From Thermoplasmata archaeon (GTDB lineage Archaea > Thermoplasmatota > Thermoplasmata > Lutacidiplasmatales > UBA184): a stretch of 64,000 nucleotides of DNA. The notes beneath the pieces were generated by a model that saw only the letters and a program-made list of their open reading frames with translations, was not told the origin of the DNA and searched no databases. The translations under genes and the position numbers were made by a program. Location: assembly GCA_028864975.1 (NCBI GenBank), contig JAGWLG010000013.1, forward strand, positions 13,252-77,251, written 5' to 3'. This document shows, in pieces, positions 31,635-51,976 of the stretch. Every line of letters starts with the position of its first letter. The stretch's first letter is position 1.

Positions 31635-32054
31635 TCAGGGGACGGAGGGCGCCAAAGAGGCGAGCCGTCGGTCGAAGGTGGCGAGGCGATCTATCCGCAG
31701 CTCCCGCATCGAAGCCAGGAGCGCGGCGTCGGTGAAGCTGAGCCGCTGATCGCGGTACTTGCGGAAGACCCCCCACGCAGGCCGCATCAACGAGGTCCCG
31801 AGGGAGGCGATCGAGAGCCCCCGGAGCTCCGGAGTGGGCAACGGGAGGAGCCGGGCCGCAGCCTCTTCGAGGGCGGGGGGGTCCCTTCGGCTGCGGATCA
31901 AGGTGAAGAGCTCGTGGACCACGTGGTCCAGCACGAGGGGAGCCCCGAACTCTCGTCGACCGACACGGTCCAGGAGCGCGGTGGCCCGTTCGTGGGCCTC
32001 ATCATCATGGTTGAGCGCCCCGTAGAGCACCCCGGTGTCGAGGAGGACGCTCAT
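31635..32054 (-). CDS. vapC: VapC PIN-domain toxin
   Basis: VLLDTGVLYG, HE, SFTDA, ATFDRR; ATGA overlap with the antitoxin; ATG 32054 chosen within ORF 31635..32216. Confidence 0.9.
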   Translation of the reverse strand: MSVLLDTGVLYGALNHDDEAHERATALLDRVGRREFGAPLVLDHVVHELFTLIRSRRDPPALEEAAARLLPLPTPELRGLSIASLGTSLMRPAWGVFRKYRDQRLSFTDAALLASMRELRIDRLATFDRRLASLAPSVP

Positions 32055-32326
32055 CGGAAGGTCTTGGCGATGTCGCGGTCGATATCCTCCTCGCGCGAGC
32101 GTTTCCCGGTACGCACGCATAGGCGGTGGAGCCTCTCGAGCTCCCTCTGGGTCATAGGGCGGAACGCGTCGGGTCCCAGGCGGTCCCGTTCGGCCTCGGC
32201 CAGGTCCATGACCCACGAGAGCAGGAGCTGCTGCGGGATCCTCTCGCCATACTTGGCCATGAGCTCCCCCTGGAGCCGGTCCAAGCGGTGCTTGTCGGCT
32301 TCCAGCATTTTCACGGACGTGGTCAT
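32051..32326 (-). CDS. vapB: VapB-type antitoxin (RHH-like N-terminus)
   Basis: TTSVKMLEADKHRLDRLQ...; C-terminal REEDIDR; coupled to vapC. Confidence 0.8.
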   Translation of the reverse strand: MTTSVKMLEADKHRLDRLQGELMAKYGERIPQQLLLSWVMDLAEAERDRLGPDAFRPMTQRELERLHRLCVRTGKRSREEDIDRDIAKTFR

Positions 32327-32366: not shown

Positions 32367-32370
32367 GCGG

Positions 32371-32418
32371 GGTTCTGTCCCAGATTCGGGCCGTGGGCCG
32401 GTCAGGCACTCGCCCGTC
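32371..32418 (+). repeat. left terminal inverted repeat (48 bp, imperfect)
   Basis: 37/48 identity to the reverse complement of 33719-33766; outer 26 bp 24/26; CGGGCGAG submotif at the same offset in both ends. Confidence 0.9.
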
Positions 32419-32500
32419 CCGCGTCGGGGCGCCACCTCACCTAGCATGCGATCTCGTGGTCCCCTCCACCTTTATCCGTCGCCCACCACGTAGTTTTCCC

Positions 32501-33739
32501 GTGCCCCCCGTCGTCCTTTCCCTGACCTTCCCTGTGGCCGACCTGCCGCCCCCGGTCCGCTCGGTCATGGCCGAGTTCCGATTGATGGTCAATCGCGGCA
32601 TCCGCTTCGCCCTCGAGGAGAACAAGACCGCCCGGGGGTCCATCCCTCCCTCCTTCCGACAGACGCTCATGCGGGAGCATCGGGTGAACTCGACCCATGT
32701 CGCCGCCGCGCTCGAGGTCGCCCTCACCTGCGCCAAGGGGCACCGACGCCTCCTGCGGAAGGGGAGGGCGGGGCACGTCCCCTACTGCCGACGCCCCTTT
32801 CTGAAGACCTCCAAGTCGAGCTTTCACATCGACCCGGACACCGGGAAGGTTCGCTTATCGCTCCGGAACGGGGAGTGGGTCTCCTTCTTCGTACCCGTCT
32901 CCCAGCATGCACGGCGGACCCTCCTTGACCCGAAGGTCCGCTTGAAGGCGCTCACCCTCACCGAACGGAAGCTCTCCCTCGCCTACGAGGTCGACGCTCC
33001 GGAGCCCTATGTCCCCGAGGCCGCCATCGCTCTCGACACCAATGAGCGCTCGCTCGACGGGGTGCTCGCGACCCCCTCGAGCTGTGAGCCTGTCGTCGTC
33101 CCCTTCCCCGAGGTCAAGAGGGTCCAGCAGACCCACTTCGAGCGCCGACGGAGACTGGGGAGGAAGAAGGCTCACGACCGCAGGGTGAAGCGGCGACTGC
33201 TCGGCCGCGAGGGAAAGCGAGAGCATGACCGGGTGAACTCCCGCCTGCACATGCTGACGAACACCCTGGTCGCCACGGCCCGCGAGAATCGGGCCGTCCT
33301 GGTCCTGGAGGACCTGAAGCCCCCCCAGGGGGGAGGTCGCGGACGCCGGCAGCGTCGTGGGCTCTCCTCCTGGCCGCAGGGGGAGCTGCACCGACAGATC
33401 CGCTACAAGAGCGCCCTGCACGGGGTGCCCCTCATCACCGTGAACCCTCGATACACGAGCAAGACCTGCCCGAGATGTGGCGTGAGAGCCGAAAGGGTGG
33501 GCAAGGTGTTCGACTGCGCGGGCTGCGGGTGGTCCTTGGACCGCCAGCGGAACGCGGGGATCAACATCTACGCAACGGCTCGGCGGGAGACCGCCGAACT
33601 TGGAGGTCTACGGTTCGACCTCGACGCCCTGGCCAAGGATGTGGTGATCCCCCTCTACCCCGCGGGCAGCGCCGCGAGGGCACGGGAGGAGCGGACGGTC
33701 AGGGAGCCCAAGGGGACGGTCGGGCGAGGGACATCCTGA
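32501..33739 (+). CDS. tnpB: TnpB-family RNA-guided protein, RuvC-III D-to-Q variant
   Basis: RuvC-I ALDTNE, RuvC-II VLEDL, zinc finger CPRCG..CAGCG, RuvC-III LDRQRNAGINI; GTG 32501 lies 26 nt after TTTAT (32471-32475). Confidence 0.9.
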   Translation: MPPVVLSLTFPVADLPPPVRSVMAEFRLMVNRGIRFALEENKTARGSIPPSFRQTLMREHRVNSTHVAAALEVALTCAKGHRRLLRKGRAGHVPYCRRPFLKTSKSSFHIDPDTGKVRLSLRNGEWVSFFVPVSQHARRTLLDPKVRLKALTLTERKLSLAYEVDAPEPYVPEAAIALDTNERSLDGVLATPSSCEPVVVPFPEVKRVQQTHFERRRRLGRKKAHDRRVKRRLLGREGKREHDRVNSRLHMLTNTLVATARENRAVLVLEDLKPPQGGGRGRRQRRGLSSWPQGELHRQIRYKSALHGVPLITVNPRYTSKTCPRCGVRAERVGKVFDCAGCGWSLDRQRNAGINIYATARRETAELGGLRFDLDALAKDVVIPLYPAGSAARAREERTVREPKGTVGRGTS

Positions 33740-33766
33740 GCCGCGGCCCGAATCGGGGACAGAACC
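33636..33766 (+). ncRNA. candidate omegaRNA scaffold overlapping the tnpB 3' end
   Basis: AGGATGT (33636-33642) can pair with ACATCCT (33731-33737), enclosing a GC-rich region; position matches TnpB omegaRNAs; boundaries inferred. Confidence 0.45.
33719..33766 (-). repeat. right terminal inverted repeat (48 bp, imperfect)
   Basis: Partner of 32371-32418. Confidence 0.9.
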
Positions 33767-34144
33767 CTCGGAAAAAGTGGCAATCAGCTCCCTACCGGCG
33801 AGGCTCCGCTCCGGTACGATGAAGACGTCGAGCTGAGGTTTGGCCCGGCTACGAAGTGCCTCCAACTCCTTCCTCCTCGCCCTATAGAGGGCGGGAGGGA
33901 CCACGACGAGAATGTCGATGTCGTGAGGAGCGGGCTCCGATGTCACGAAGCTCCCGTTGATAAGGACAGATCCGGAGATGGCCCTGCGCTCGAGGTCCGC
34001 CAAAAGACGACGGAGCTCCCGAAGCAACTCACGACGACGTCGAGTCTGTCCGAACCGCGCCTCCAGCTCGTGGTAGGTGCAGGGCCAGACCCCGAAGGGC
34101 AGCTTCCCATCGTTGTCAAGAAGTGGAATGGTCATCGCCCGCCC

Positions 34145-34804
34145 TCACAGGGTCGAGGACGGGCGGGAGACGCGCGTCGCCGTGAGGCCCCACGACTCCA
34201 GCTCCTCGAACGTCCGCCGCACGGCGGCCTCCAGCAGCCCCCACTGACGCGCGGTGGCAGGAAGCTGCTGCGCGTGGTACGCCCTCCAGGCGACCCGAGC
34301 CACGTACTTGGAGTTCGCCTTTCCCGCGTCCGTGTAGAGGCGCCGACCGAGGTGATCGGGGTCACCTCGCGCGAGGTCGCGGAAGTGGTCGCGCGCTTCC
34401 CGCCAGGCGTACCCGCCTGGCGGCGCGGCCCGCAGGGCCTTCATCCGGTTCTCGGTGCGATCTTCCGAGGGGAGCGCGCGGATCCCCGGGGTCGCGCGCA
34501 GCTCCCGCGTGACGAACTTCGGGTCCGTCATTGCGGCGTCTCCATGACGGGGTGCTCGTAGCTCACGGCGGCATGAAGGGTGCGGACACATAGCTCGCAC
34601 ACGCGCGCGAGTCGCTTCGGGGGGGGAGCGAGGGCCCGCCTTGCGCGTCTTGCCTTCATGCGGGAGGGAGGACGCGCCCCGACCTCGCCGGGGTGCGTAA
34701 GCTACGTAGACCCCCCCGAACCTGGTCCCTTTCGGGAAGCGCTCGCCGCAGTTGCGGCATGTTCGGCAACCGTCGGTGATGTGGACGTAGAATCGGCGGG
34801 CCAT
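34145..34804 (-). CDS. hypothetical protein with Cys clusters (CRTCRNC, CPHPSC)
   Basis: GAGGT Shine-Dalgarno-like sequence before ATG 34804; ends 9 nt before the next start. Confidence 0.55.
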   Translation of the reverse strand: MARRFYVHITDGCRTCRNCGERFPKGTRFGGVYVAYAPRRGRGASSLPHEGKTRKAGPRSPPEATRARVRAMCPHPSCRRELRAPRHGDAAMTDPKFVTRELRATPGIRALPSEDRTENRMKALRAAPPGGYAWREARDHFRDLARGDPDHLGRRLYTDAGKANSKYVARVAWRAYHAQQLPATARQWGLLEAAVRRTFEELESWGLTATRVSRPSSTL

Positions 34805-34847
34805 GGACCTCGTTCCTCGGAAAGGAGGAACGAGTTGGGTGGGGGGC

Positions 34848-35231
34848 TCAGTCGCGCGCTTCTTGGAGGACGAACTGGTGTCGCCTCTCACGCAGGATCA
34901 GGTCGTAGTGCTCGAAGAAAGGCCTCCGCCCGAGGAGCGCGACCGGGGTGTCCCGTCCTTTCTCGGTAACCAGGATCGGGTCCAGGGGGAAGGAAAGCAG
35001 GACCTTCCCCTCGAGGTCCGGGCTGAGGACGTGAAGGTGGACCCTGGAGGCGCGCGCGGGGACAGGGCCCCCGACCGCGGCACGCTCTTGCGTCCTGTCC
35101 CCCTTCTCGAGCCCAAGGACCTCCGCGACCTCCGACGGGACGGCAGAGAAGGTCGAACCCGTGTCGATGACCATCCGGGTCTCCAGATGGGAGCGGCCCC
35201 AGGAGAGACGGACCTTCAGGGAGGGGGCCAT
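34848..35231 (-). CDS. retropepsin-like aspartyl protease
   Basis: VIDTGSTFSAVPSEVAEVLGL and LLGRRPFF; start uncertain, since an FPY motif lies upstream of ATG 35231 within ORF 34848..35555. Confidence 0.85.
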   Translation of the reverse strand: MAPSLKVRLSWGRSHLETRMVIDTGSTFSAVPSEVAEVLGLEKGDRTQERAAVGGPVPARASRVHLHVLSPDLEGKVLLSFPLDPILVTEKGRDTPVALLGRRPFFEHYDLILRERRHQFVLQEARD

Positions 35232-50286: not shown

Positions 50287-50329
50287 CGTACCTCTACGAC
50301 AGATGGGGGGATCGGGGGGAGGAGCAGAG

Positions 50330-50349
50330 CCCCCGTTTTCAAACGGGGG
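50330..50349 (+). repeat. left-end subterminal hairpin
   Basis: CCCCCGTTT-TC-AAACGGGGG, preceded by AGAG (50326-50329). Confidence 0.9.
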
Positions 50350-50502
50350 GTACGACCTCCCCCCGACCCGTCCAGGGACCACCTTCGGTCCAGAGCTCGA
50401 CACGGGAGCACCTTACAGGTCACGCCGTACCACGGCGACGTTATGCCCGCTGGCCGCCCATGAGCGCCCGGGAGACGCTGCCCGTCCGCTCTCCTCCGCC
50501 CC

Positions 50503-51732
50503 ATGCTGACCGCCGTGAAGTTCCGCCTCTATCCTTTCCCGGACCAGGCGCGGGAGCTCGACCGTCAGCTCTCCGAACTGAACTCCCTCTGGAACCACGC
50601 CCTCGAAGAGCGGTGCGCTGCGTGGAAGAAGGAGAGGCGGTCCCTCACCTTCGTCCAGCAGTGTCAGGAGCTGACCCGGTGGCGGAACTTCGACCGGGAG
50701 GGTCTCGGGAGGGTGAACGCCCAGGTCGCGCAGGAGTGCCTGGCCCGCCTGAACGACGCGTTCCAGCACTTCTTCCGCAGGGTCAAGAGCGGGGAGGCTC
50801 CCGGGTTCCCTCGCTTCAATCGGGAGACCACGTCGCTGACCTATCCCCAGGCCTACGACTCCGTGAGGCTCGTCCCTGGGAGGAACGGGACGCGAAGGCT
50901 CTCCCTGTCCAGGGTGGGGGACCTTCCGATCGAGGTCCACCGGGAGCTTCCCGCGGGCCGTACGAAGACCTGCACGGTCGAGCGGGAGGGAGACCGATGG
51001 TATGCGGTCCTGATCGTAGAGATGGCGGACCCGGTCCCTCCCCCCGACCTTCCTCCCCGCCATCCCTTGGGCGTGGACCTGGGACTCTCTCGCCTCGCCA
51101 CGCTGTCGACCGGGGAGGCGGTCGAGGCCCCGAGGTTCCTCCGACGCTCGGAGGTCCAGCTGAAGCGCCAGCAGCGGAGGCTCTCGAGGAAGCGGAGGGG
51201 CTCCCACAACTGGCGGAAGCAGAAGGCGAGGGTCCAGCGGTGCCACGCGAGGGTCCGGGACCAGCGGCGCGATCTGGCGCACCAGCTCACGTCGACCTGG
51301 GCGCGAGAGCACGACCTCATCGCCTTCGAGGACCTGGACGTGAGGTCGCACCTCATGGGCCCCTTCTCCAAGTCCACCGCCGACGCGGGTTGGGGGATGC
51401 TGCGTCGGTTCGCCGAGTACAAGGAAGCGCGCCGGTCGGGCCGGTACGTCGAGGTGCCGTCGAAGGGGACGACCCAGAGCTGCTCGGCGTGCGCACGGCC
51501 GCATGACCCGCCCCTGACGCTCCGGGACCGCACGTACGAGTGCCCGTGCGGTCTGCGGCTCGACCGAGATGTGAACGCGGCGAGGAACGTGCTCGCCCGC
51601 GCCCTCGCCATCGTAGGGGGGGATACCCCCGAAGTGACGCCGGTGGAGATCGGACCTCCGGTGGCCCGCAAGGGCCGCCGCGTCCGGTCCATGAAGCAGG
51701 AACCGCCCTCGGCCGTGGGTGCGAGCACCTGA
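50503..51732 (+). CDS. tnpB: TnpB RNA-guided endonuclease (intact RuvC triad)
   Basis: AVKFRLYP, GVDLGL (D), AFEDL (E), TTQSCSAC..CPCG, DRDVNAARN (D). Confidence 0.96.
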   Translation: MLTAVKFRLYPFPDQARELDRQLSELNSLWNHALEERCAAWKKERRSLTFVQQCQELTRWRNFDREGLGRVNAQVAQECLARLNDAFQHFFRRVKSGEAPGFPRFNRETTSLTYPQAYDSVRLVPGRNGTRRLSLSRVGDLPIEVHRELPAGRTKTCTVEREGDRWYAVLIVEMADPVPPPDLPPRHPLGVDLGLSRLATLSTGEAVEAPRFLRRSEVQLKRQQRRLSRKRRGSHNWRKQKARVQRCHARVRDQRRDLAHQLTSTWAREHDLIAFEDLDVRSHLMGPFSKSTADAGWGMLRRFAEYKEARRSGRYVEVPSKGTTQSCSACARPHDPPLTLRDRTYECPCGLRLDRDVNAARNVLARALAIVGGDTPEVTPVEIGPPVARKGRRVRSMKQEPPSAVGAST

Positions 51733-51746
51733 CGGCCGGGAGGAAG

Positions 51747-51766
51747 CCCCCCGTTTCAACGGGGGG
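51747..51766 (+). repeat. right-end subterminal hairpin (3' part of the omegaRNA)
   Basis: CCCCCCGTT-TC-AACGGGGGG preceded by GAAG and followed by AGGATA-TCAC. Confidence 0.92.
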
Positions 51767-51772
51767 AGGATA

Positions 51773-51976
51773 TCACTCGCTCGAGATCTCCAGCCGTTCG
51801 CGTTCGATCTCTCGGCGAACGAGCTTGTCGTTCTTGAAGTGTTCCGTTACTCGCTCGCGAACGATGGCCTTCACGCCGGCCTCGCGCAGGGTCTTAGGGT
51901 CGAGCATCAGCCCCCGGCGCCCGCTCGGTAGAGTGACGAGCTCGACCGACGACTCTTGAGCGGATCCCTCAGCCAC
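51773..51976 (-). CDS. 67-aa hypothetical protein
   Basis: Overlaps the upstream 401-aa gene by 8 nt; its TGA stop lies inside the IS right end (TCAC). Confidence 0.7.
   Translation of the reverse strand: MAEGSAQESSVELVTLPSGRRGLMLDPKTLREAGVKAIVRERVTEHFKNDKLVRREIERERLEISSE

Follow-up and report, generated by a model that had tools for sequence, protein, structure and literature searches.

TnpB is accepted to cleave the scar-free site that remains in the donor once an IS605 or IS607 element has excised, which leads to the transposon being copied back; transposition of IS6-family elements follows a copy-in route, without excision, and duplicates the target. Elements of the IS200/IS605 type have no terminal inverted repeats, generate no target duplication, and carry subterminal hairpins (PMC13565253). 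TnpB is also found on DDE transposons: six DDE-associated branches, DDE-1 to DDE-6, have been described, in which the terminal repeats are inverted, along with solo TnpBs that share those ends (PMC10691335), and the DDE partners named in the available part of a 2026 review are IS630, ISL2, and IS1031 (PMC13565253). The IS6 review describes family ends with GG tips and a cTGTt motif and a duplication of 8 bp, and it lists only one passenger-gene member and two miniature derivatives (PMC7986276). Here we describe an element in a 64,000-nucleotide stretch of DNA (the window) from an uncultured Thermoplasmata archaeon. It occupies positions 32371-33766 of the window, a 1,396-bp unit whose sole gene is an intact tnpB. 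Our analysis indicates that it is probably a nonautonomous element in which IS6-family DDE ends surround tnpB and an apparent guide-RNA scaffold, and which is moved by an IS6 transposase. The window is part of contig C46, in a genome of 3.6 Mb that is 89.6% complete; below, G000 denotes this genome, C its contigs, G genomes, and L the loci examined.

An inverted-repeat search identified arms at 32370-32419 and 33718-33767, each of 50 nt and 78% complementary (39/50), with a score 11 standard deviations above that of shuffled flanks; the imperfect terminal inverted repeats first noticed from the letters alone (the sequence-only reading) are thus confirmed. The left repeat (32371-32419, plus strand), the boundary of which is fixed by a copy on C102, has as its core the outer 26 nt, GGTTCTGTCCCAGATTCGGGCCGTGG (32371-32396, plus strand). 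The right repeat (33718-33766, minus strand), with the tip ...GGGACAGAACC and a boundary fixed by copies on C73 and C79, overlaps the final 22 nt of tnpB and ends 27 nt past the stop codon. GGTTCTGTC is found at both tips, which read GG...CC with CTGT inside. The element contains neither a Y1 or serine tnpA nor subterminal hairpins. The contrast drawn earlier with the second tnpB of the window also holds: this gene (open reading frame 50464-51729) is accompanied at each end by direct subterminal hairpins, CCCCCGTTT(C)AAACGGGGG, the element ends at about 50320-50350 and 51740-51775, terminating in ...GGATATCAC, and it is an ordinary IS200/IS605 type.

Three further partial copies were located in the same genome. 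C102:49749-49971 comprises the left 222 nt at 96% identity and runs up to the contig end; C79:1-144, at a contig start, comprises the right end at 99% identity; and C73:21585-21774 (L003:1501-1690) is a solitary right-end fragment of 190 nt (96%), with unrelated sequence upstream, which retains exactly the right repeat and the stretch of the putative guide RNA. Homology among the copies starts at GG(T/C)TCTGTCCC and stops at GGGACAGAACC, corresponding to 32371 and 33766, beyond which the flanks are unrelated; those of C73 and C79 diverge from the window starting at base 33767. The right ends on C73 and C79 give a 26/26 inverted match to the left end of the window element. Given these independent boundaries and the 26/26 match, we conclude that the repeats are the real ends of a repeated element. 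The boundaries of the 1,396-bp tnpB-only unit proposed at the outset are therefore set independently by the C102, C79, and C73 copies, and its repeats are not unique to the locus, at least five ends being present in the genome, of which three coincide with contig breaks or lie close to them. An exact and near-exact repeat search of 151 genomes of the same archaeal family gave matches in the window's genome only, the remainder being orthologous coding sequence, and a metagenome scan for the exact repeat gave no match. Relaxing the repeat pattern mainly brought in zinc-ribbon codons (TTCTGTCCGAACTGCGGGA, encoding FCPNCG), with chance matches that included G044 and G062, and a solitary repeat-like site adjoining a peptidase gene (L085) was rejected as an element.

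The assignment of the terminus to IS6 in the sequence-only reading agrees with print, where GGTTCTGTTGCAAAGTT is the IS257 terminal repeat (PMC4856351; PMC2920175). The window left end reads GGTTCTGTCC CAGAT TCGGG, in agreement with the IS6-element end consensus GGTTCTGTYY-N5-TCGGG. The IS6 transposase domain (PF13610) was searched in the 151 genomes of the family, and ends were then sought beside the matches; a first automatic inverted-repeat search recognized ends only for L006 and L124, and a later tip-motif search revealed paired ends beside several PF13610 matches missed at first. The same consensus ends IS6-transposase elements in seven or more further genomes of the family (L119, L124, L133, L135, L139, L143, and L155). 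The ends of the first six of these, and of L100, read GGTTCTGTCCAGAAATCGGG, GGTTCTGTCCAGAACTYGGG, GGTTCTGTCTAGCCATCGGG, and similar. L119 (G008) ends in GGTTCTGTCCAGAAATCGGGTGG; L143, L125, and L155 (G150) end in the consensus; and L100, from another Thermoplasmata metagenome-assembled genome (MAG; G171), has GGTTCTGTCTAGCCATCGGG beside an IS6 transposase, no duplication being seen for any of these five. L135 (G063) and L139 (G112) end in GGTTCTGTCCAGAACTYGGG, with a 9-bp duplication, GTTCGGAGC, in L135, and L133 (G052) ends in GGTTCTGTTCAACTATTGGG, with a 9-bp duplication, ATTGGAACG. L124 (G050) ends in GGTTCTGTTCAATCTCGGG, with an N4 spacer, and its duplication, CTTGGACC, is 8 bp, or 9-10 bp, because the right tip is ambiguous. 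The matching autonomous elements are 2-2.4 kb in length and encode zinc-finger transposases of 390-416 aa, the zinc-binding domain being N-terminal; against NF033587 (IS6), those of L119, L124, and L133 scored 134.7, 131.5, and 128.3 bits (NCBIfam cut-off 125). Autonomous copies with the same ends, as had been anticipated, are thus represented by these seven elements, and none is found in the window's own genome.

Anchored at the tip and compared without gaps over 22 nt, the window end shares 13-15 bases with the tested IS6 ends, against a mean of 6.2 for random window pairs (P[≥15] = 1.5e-4); with L119, the left end shares 16/22 counted by eye. The 77%-identical same-genus copy, L017, matches the right end of the IS6 element in G150 at 20/24 positions in the repeat and in a further 18/19 subterminal block, with a local-alignment z of 8.3. 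We also recorded that L006:136-1877, L135:436-2842, and L124:566-2657 (1.7-2.4 kb; transposases of 340-416 aa with an N-terminal zinc-binding domain) contain additional DNA with open reading frames of no known family; the second reading frames of L006 and L124 were considered as TnpB remnants and rejected after examination.

Several observations weigh against the IS6 assignment. When the ends of the window element itself were aligned locally with IS6 ends in a generic way, the scores did not exceed shuffles (z 0-1.6); the similarity emerges only with tip anchoring, and the sister copy provides the other part of the link. In the 89.6%-complete genome, the end consensus matches only five TnpB-element ends, with no IS6 element among them. 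The only IS6 copy there (C63, L006; transposase at 175-1200, ends at 136-159 and 1854-1877) has ends reading GGTTCCGTTTCGTAAAGGG, 11-12/22 identical to those of the window, and no IS6 transposase match was obtained in the three other same-genus genomes searched. The 'caaa' motif typical of classical IS6 ends is absent, with CCCAGATTCGGG in the window and CAGAA or CAATC in the same position of the local IS6-transposase elements. The clear duplications of the family IS6 elements, in L133 and L135, are 9 bp and not 8, and the 8-bp duplication of the window element, described below, derives from one site only, split over two contigs. Finally, tnpB and an IS6 (or any DDE) transposase were not found in one element among the loci examined.

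The failure to find a matching transposase in four genomes of the genus also bears on whether the element is a relic, once mobile with IS6-type ends and now immobile here after loss of its partner. This would accord with the 1-4% divergence of the copies, with the reduction of one copy to a 190-nt right-end fragment, and with the degenerate left tip, CACGCTGTCC, of the same-genus copy, which ends in ...GGACAGAACC. We consider it unlikely, however: tnpB retains an intact frame and its catalytic residues, the C79 and window ends share 99% identity, the contig breaks at copies indicate that several near-identical copies exist, and repeated elements are often missing from MAGs. An element still moved by an IS6 transposase remains the explanation that we favor.

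More distant relatives place the element in a wider context. Sister TnpB clades, 41-56% identical, are also tnpB only, with inverted ends and target duplications; together with the 77% copy they show homologous tnpB genes with inverted ends in place of IS605/IS607 ends or tnpA, as the sequence-only reading implied. Relatives of 47-56% identity, from the same archaeal family (L021, L031, L027, L029, L032, L018, and L024; genomes G023, G008, and G017), have the ends (T/G)GCTTTGGGATTTTATTC or GGCTTTGAATCRAAA and 9-bp duplications (CTACGCGTG, GTTCGACCC, and ACGAAGCGC). Relatives of 41-43% identity (L058-L069, L070-L099, and L183-L227) are abundant both in metagenomes (45 loci) and in other Thermoplasmata MAGs; they measure ∼1.59 kb, with the ends GGYYCTGTTGCRGAACTCC ... 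TTTCGCAACAGAACC (right end also GGTTCTGTTGCGAAAC) and 6-bp duplications, and the first 12 bases of their end are the classical IS257/IS1216 tip. Protein scans of metagenome and viral sequences gave these 45 metagenome loci (36-46% identity) and nothing among the viruses; with a best identity in this range, close relatives are absent from the scans. A TnpB tree with the end types mapped, as had been suggested, supported the window-type clade at 97/100, the 6-bp type at 99/99, and the 9-bp type weakly, at 68/66; end type follows TnpB phylogeny.

In two cases the ends of sister elements could be matched to a transposase element of their own genome. In G023, the ends of the tnpB-only loci L021 and L031 share a 16-nt exact match, CTTTGGGATTTTATTC, with the end (L103:1375-1396) of L103, an IS5-family-like transposase element (PF01609; NF033579 at 120 bits, under the cut-off of 140), and in G167 the ends of the IS5-like element L102 (942-2085) are 16/19 identical to those of the 6-bp clade. 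G017 has several tnpB-only copies, yet no PF01609 or PF13610 match. That the window ends might likewise belong to another DDE family, such as an IS5-like one, whose transposase would move the element, draws on these matches and on the eight PF01609 matches in G000; but no PF01609 locus of G000 has ends resembling GGTTCTGTCCC, and the window ends fit the IS6-element consensus and not IS5-like ends, so that we regard this alternative as improbable. The preferred assignment of the window element to an IS6-type shell therefore stands beside IS5-like shells in its sister clades. The capture of tnpB by IS6 that was originally suggested agrees with the IS6-type ends; as a single event it does not account for the wider picture. 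Because the sister ends match those of IS5-family elements present in the same genomes, and are associated with 9-bp and 6-bp duplications, one TnpB lineage appears to have changed DDE shells, and the compared sequences place one archaeal lineage across three of these: an IS6-like shell and two IS5-like shells, of the 9-bp and 6-bp types. We suggest only tentatively that the lineage moved between at least three DDE shells (8-bp, 9-bp, and 6-bp duplications) with its RNA-guided function working throughout.

Directly 5' of the duplication, 23 distinct sites of the 6-bp clade have T at position -3 in 20 cases and TTC in 11-12 (by eye). This T-rich motif could be a TnpB recognition motif or a target preference of the transposase; its position is that at which TnpB would need a recognition motif to cut an unoccupied site.

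The window TnpB has the expected domains. The product matched Pfam PF07282 at 4.6e-20 and 72 bits (cut-off 26.3) and the NCBIfam model guided_TnpB (NF040570) at 4.3e-28. The RuvC D-E-D residues are present, ALDTN, LEDL, and DRQRNAGINI aligning to the catalytic positions of TnpB-type chains with solved structures, as is a CxxC...CxxC zinc finger (CPRCG...CAGCG). A putative omega RNA scaffold would overlap the 3' end of tnpB and reach the right tip (33560-33766, plus strand), as judged by nucleotide conservation: in the last 230 nt of 16 elements, whose proteins are 41-79% identical, there is a conserved nucleotide block inside the tnpB 3' end, and a stem, GGRGGTC/GACCYC, has seven compensatory GC-to-AU changes. 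The final 50-70 nt of the 16 elements vary by shell. An Rfam search with the putative scaffold gave no match, and single-sequence folds of either end did not exceed shuffles (3' fold z -0.25).

The association of tnpB with these ends bears also on whether an IS1341-type tnpB element became nested by chance inside an IS6-derived miniature, the inverted repeats not being tnpB's own; miniature IS6 derivatives are known (PMC7986276), but this is highly improbable, given the absence of IS605-type hairpin ends within the repeats, the right tip 27 nt behind the stop codon, the inverted end at the same place after tnpB in all examined relatives (41-79% identity), and the agreement of end type with the TnpB tree.

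Comparison of flanks pointed to a target-site duplication. The sequence CTCGGAAA at 33767-33774 (plus strand), adjoining the right tip, is the right copy of an apparent 8-bp target-site duplication, and the left copy is on C102, immediately before the left end of that copy, where the flank ends ...GTCCTCGGAAA. The gene next to the right tip (33767-34135, minus strand) encodes a DUF6932, nucleotidyltransferase-like protein (PF22014, 1.5e-22, profile positions 3-115 of 142) whose 3' end appears to have been lost to the insertion; as assembled, the frame continues 52 codons into the element. Joining the window and C102 flanks with a single CTCGGAAA gave a DUF6932 frame of 139 aa (Pfam profile length, 142), the TGA of which overlaps the ATGA start of the next gene (87 aa). 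Since joining restores this frame, the flanks are taken to come from either side of a single target, of which 8 bp were duplicated. The duplication could be 9 bp, as the base preceding the repeat on C102 is the same as the element's last C. Chimeric assembly, recombination between copies, and the flank exchange of IS6 copy-in transposition fit the split duplication equally well. The search for empty target sites that had been recommended found none in the three same-genus genomes.

A mixing of flanks, the left of one insertion with the right of another, recurs across samples among metagenomic copies from a sister clade, in L183 versus L193/L185 and in L190 versus L191, and is seen also for the window versus G000:C102; possible causes are copy-in transposition, recombination between copies, and assembly chimeras at repeats. 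The insertion neighborhood (31635-32326; 33767-34891, minus strand; and L002:1180-1446) consists of small defense-like or toxin-antitoxin-like genes, among them a PIN-domain gene and the DUF6932 nucleotidyltransferase-like gene, with paralogous neighbors on C72 and C92.

The remaining features of the element are those of the tnpB gene. The reading frame that contains it spans 32393-33739. The coding sequence, of ∼412 aa, is assigned to 32502-33739 (plus strand) from the PF07282 and NF040570 matches and a conserved GTG; this GTG at 32502 is the likely start, because the GTG and the peptide VPPVVL.LTFPV, encoded ahead of the ATG at 32567, are kept in a same-genus copy that lacks an ATG at that position. 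On reading of the sequence, the interval from the left end to tnpB (32420-32501, plus strand) is a noncoding leader, presumed to hold the promoter. On the leader side, the fold of 32371-32566 was no better than chance (z 0.08).

We propose that the GGTTCTGTCC...TCGGG ends are most likely recognized in trans by a zinc-finger IS6 transposase, of a type common in the archaeal family, which would insert the element replicatively, by the copy-in route, to give the 8-bp target duplication. Action in trans is suggested because no autonomous IS6 copy with matching ends is assembled in the window's genome; the trans mobilization by an IS6-type enzyme that the sequence-only reading had put forward is thus largely supported by the matching IS6 elements of the archaeal family, and its own genome supplies no such element. 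The guide RNA would read past the right tip into the duplication and flank, and TnpB would in this way recognize the unoccupied target site. As tnpB is its only gene, the element is at most a passenger-carrying, transposase-less IS6 derivative, and the window element may now be stranded.

The role of TnpB in such a shell comes into question, since IS6 elements do not excise and duplicate their target. If the lineage has indeed moved between shells with its RNA-guided function working, the place of the T-rich motif in the 6-bp shell suggests that RNA-guided homing was refitted to transposons that duplicate the target and, for IS6, do not excise. The matched pairs of tnpB-only and transposase elements that share ends, and the sister clades in other shells, offer material on which this can be tested, and one clade offers a candidate recognition motif just before the duplication. 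A literature search for TnpB with IS6 returned only papers that list the two separately, with no IS6 partner named. TnpB on DDE transposons has been known since 2023 (PMC10691335); an IS6-type partner and a change of shell within a clade were not found in the literature, as far as the available parts of these sources extend.

Among described systems, the element resembles DDE-associated TnpB (Altae-Tran et al. 2023, PNAS, PMC10691335): symmetrical inverted terminal repeats replace IS605/IS607 ends, the tnpB 3' end is <250 bp from the transposon end, and solo copies share ends with transposase-bearing elements. It differs from the branches described there in that the probable partner is IS6-type and that tnpB and transposase never occur in one examined element. 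Eukaryotic Fanzor1 in DDE transposons (Bao and Jurka 2013, PMC3627910) offers a possible analogy, with a TnpB-type passenger, inverted ends, and duplications; unlike those transposons, the window element is archaeal and compact and has no accompanying transposase. With the IS1341 group (IS200/IS605) it shares tnpB as sole gene, a length of ∼1.4 kb, and a guide-RNA region, putative here, overlapping the 3' end; unlike that group, it has 50-nt terminal inverted repeats and an apparent 8-bp duplication. In comparison with IS6 (IS26/IS257), the window element lacks a transposase and the 'caaa' motif and has tnpB as its cargo, but it has the GG tips and the CTGT in short terminal repeats, and apparently the 8-bp duplication and a flank exchange like that of copy-in transposition (PMC7986276). 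The IS6 family, for which the review lists one passenger-gene member (PMC7986276), would thus gain a cargo-carrying, transposase-less derivative.

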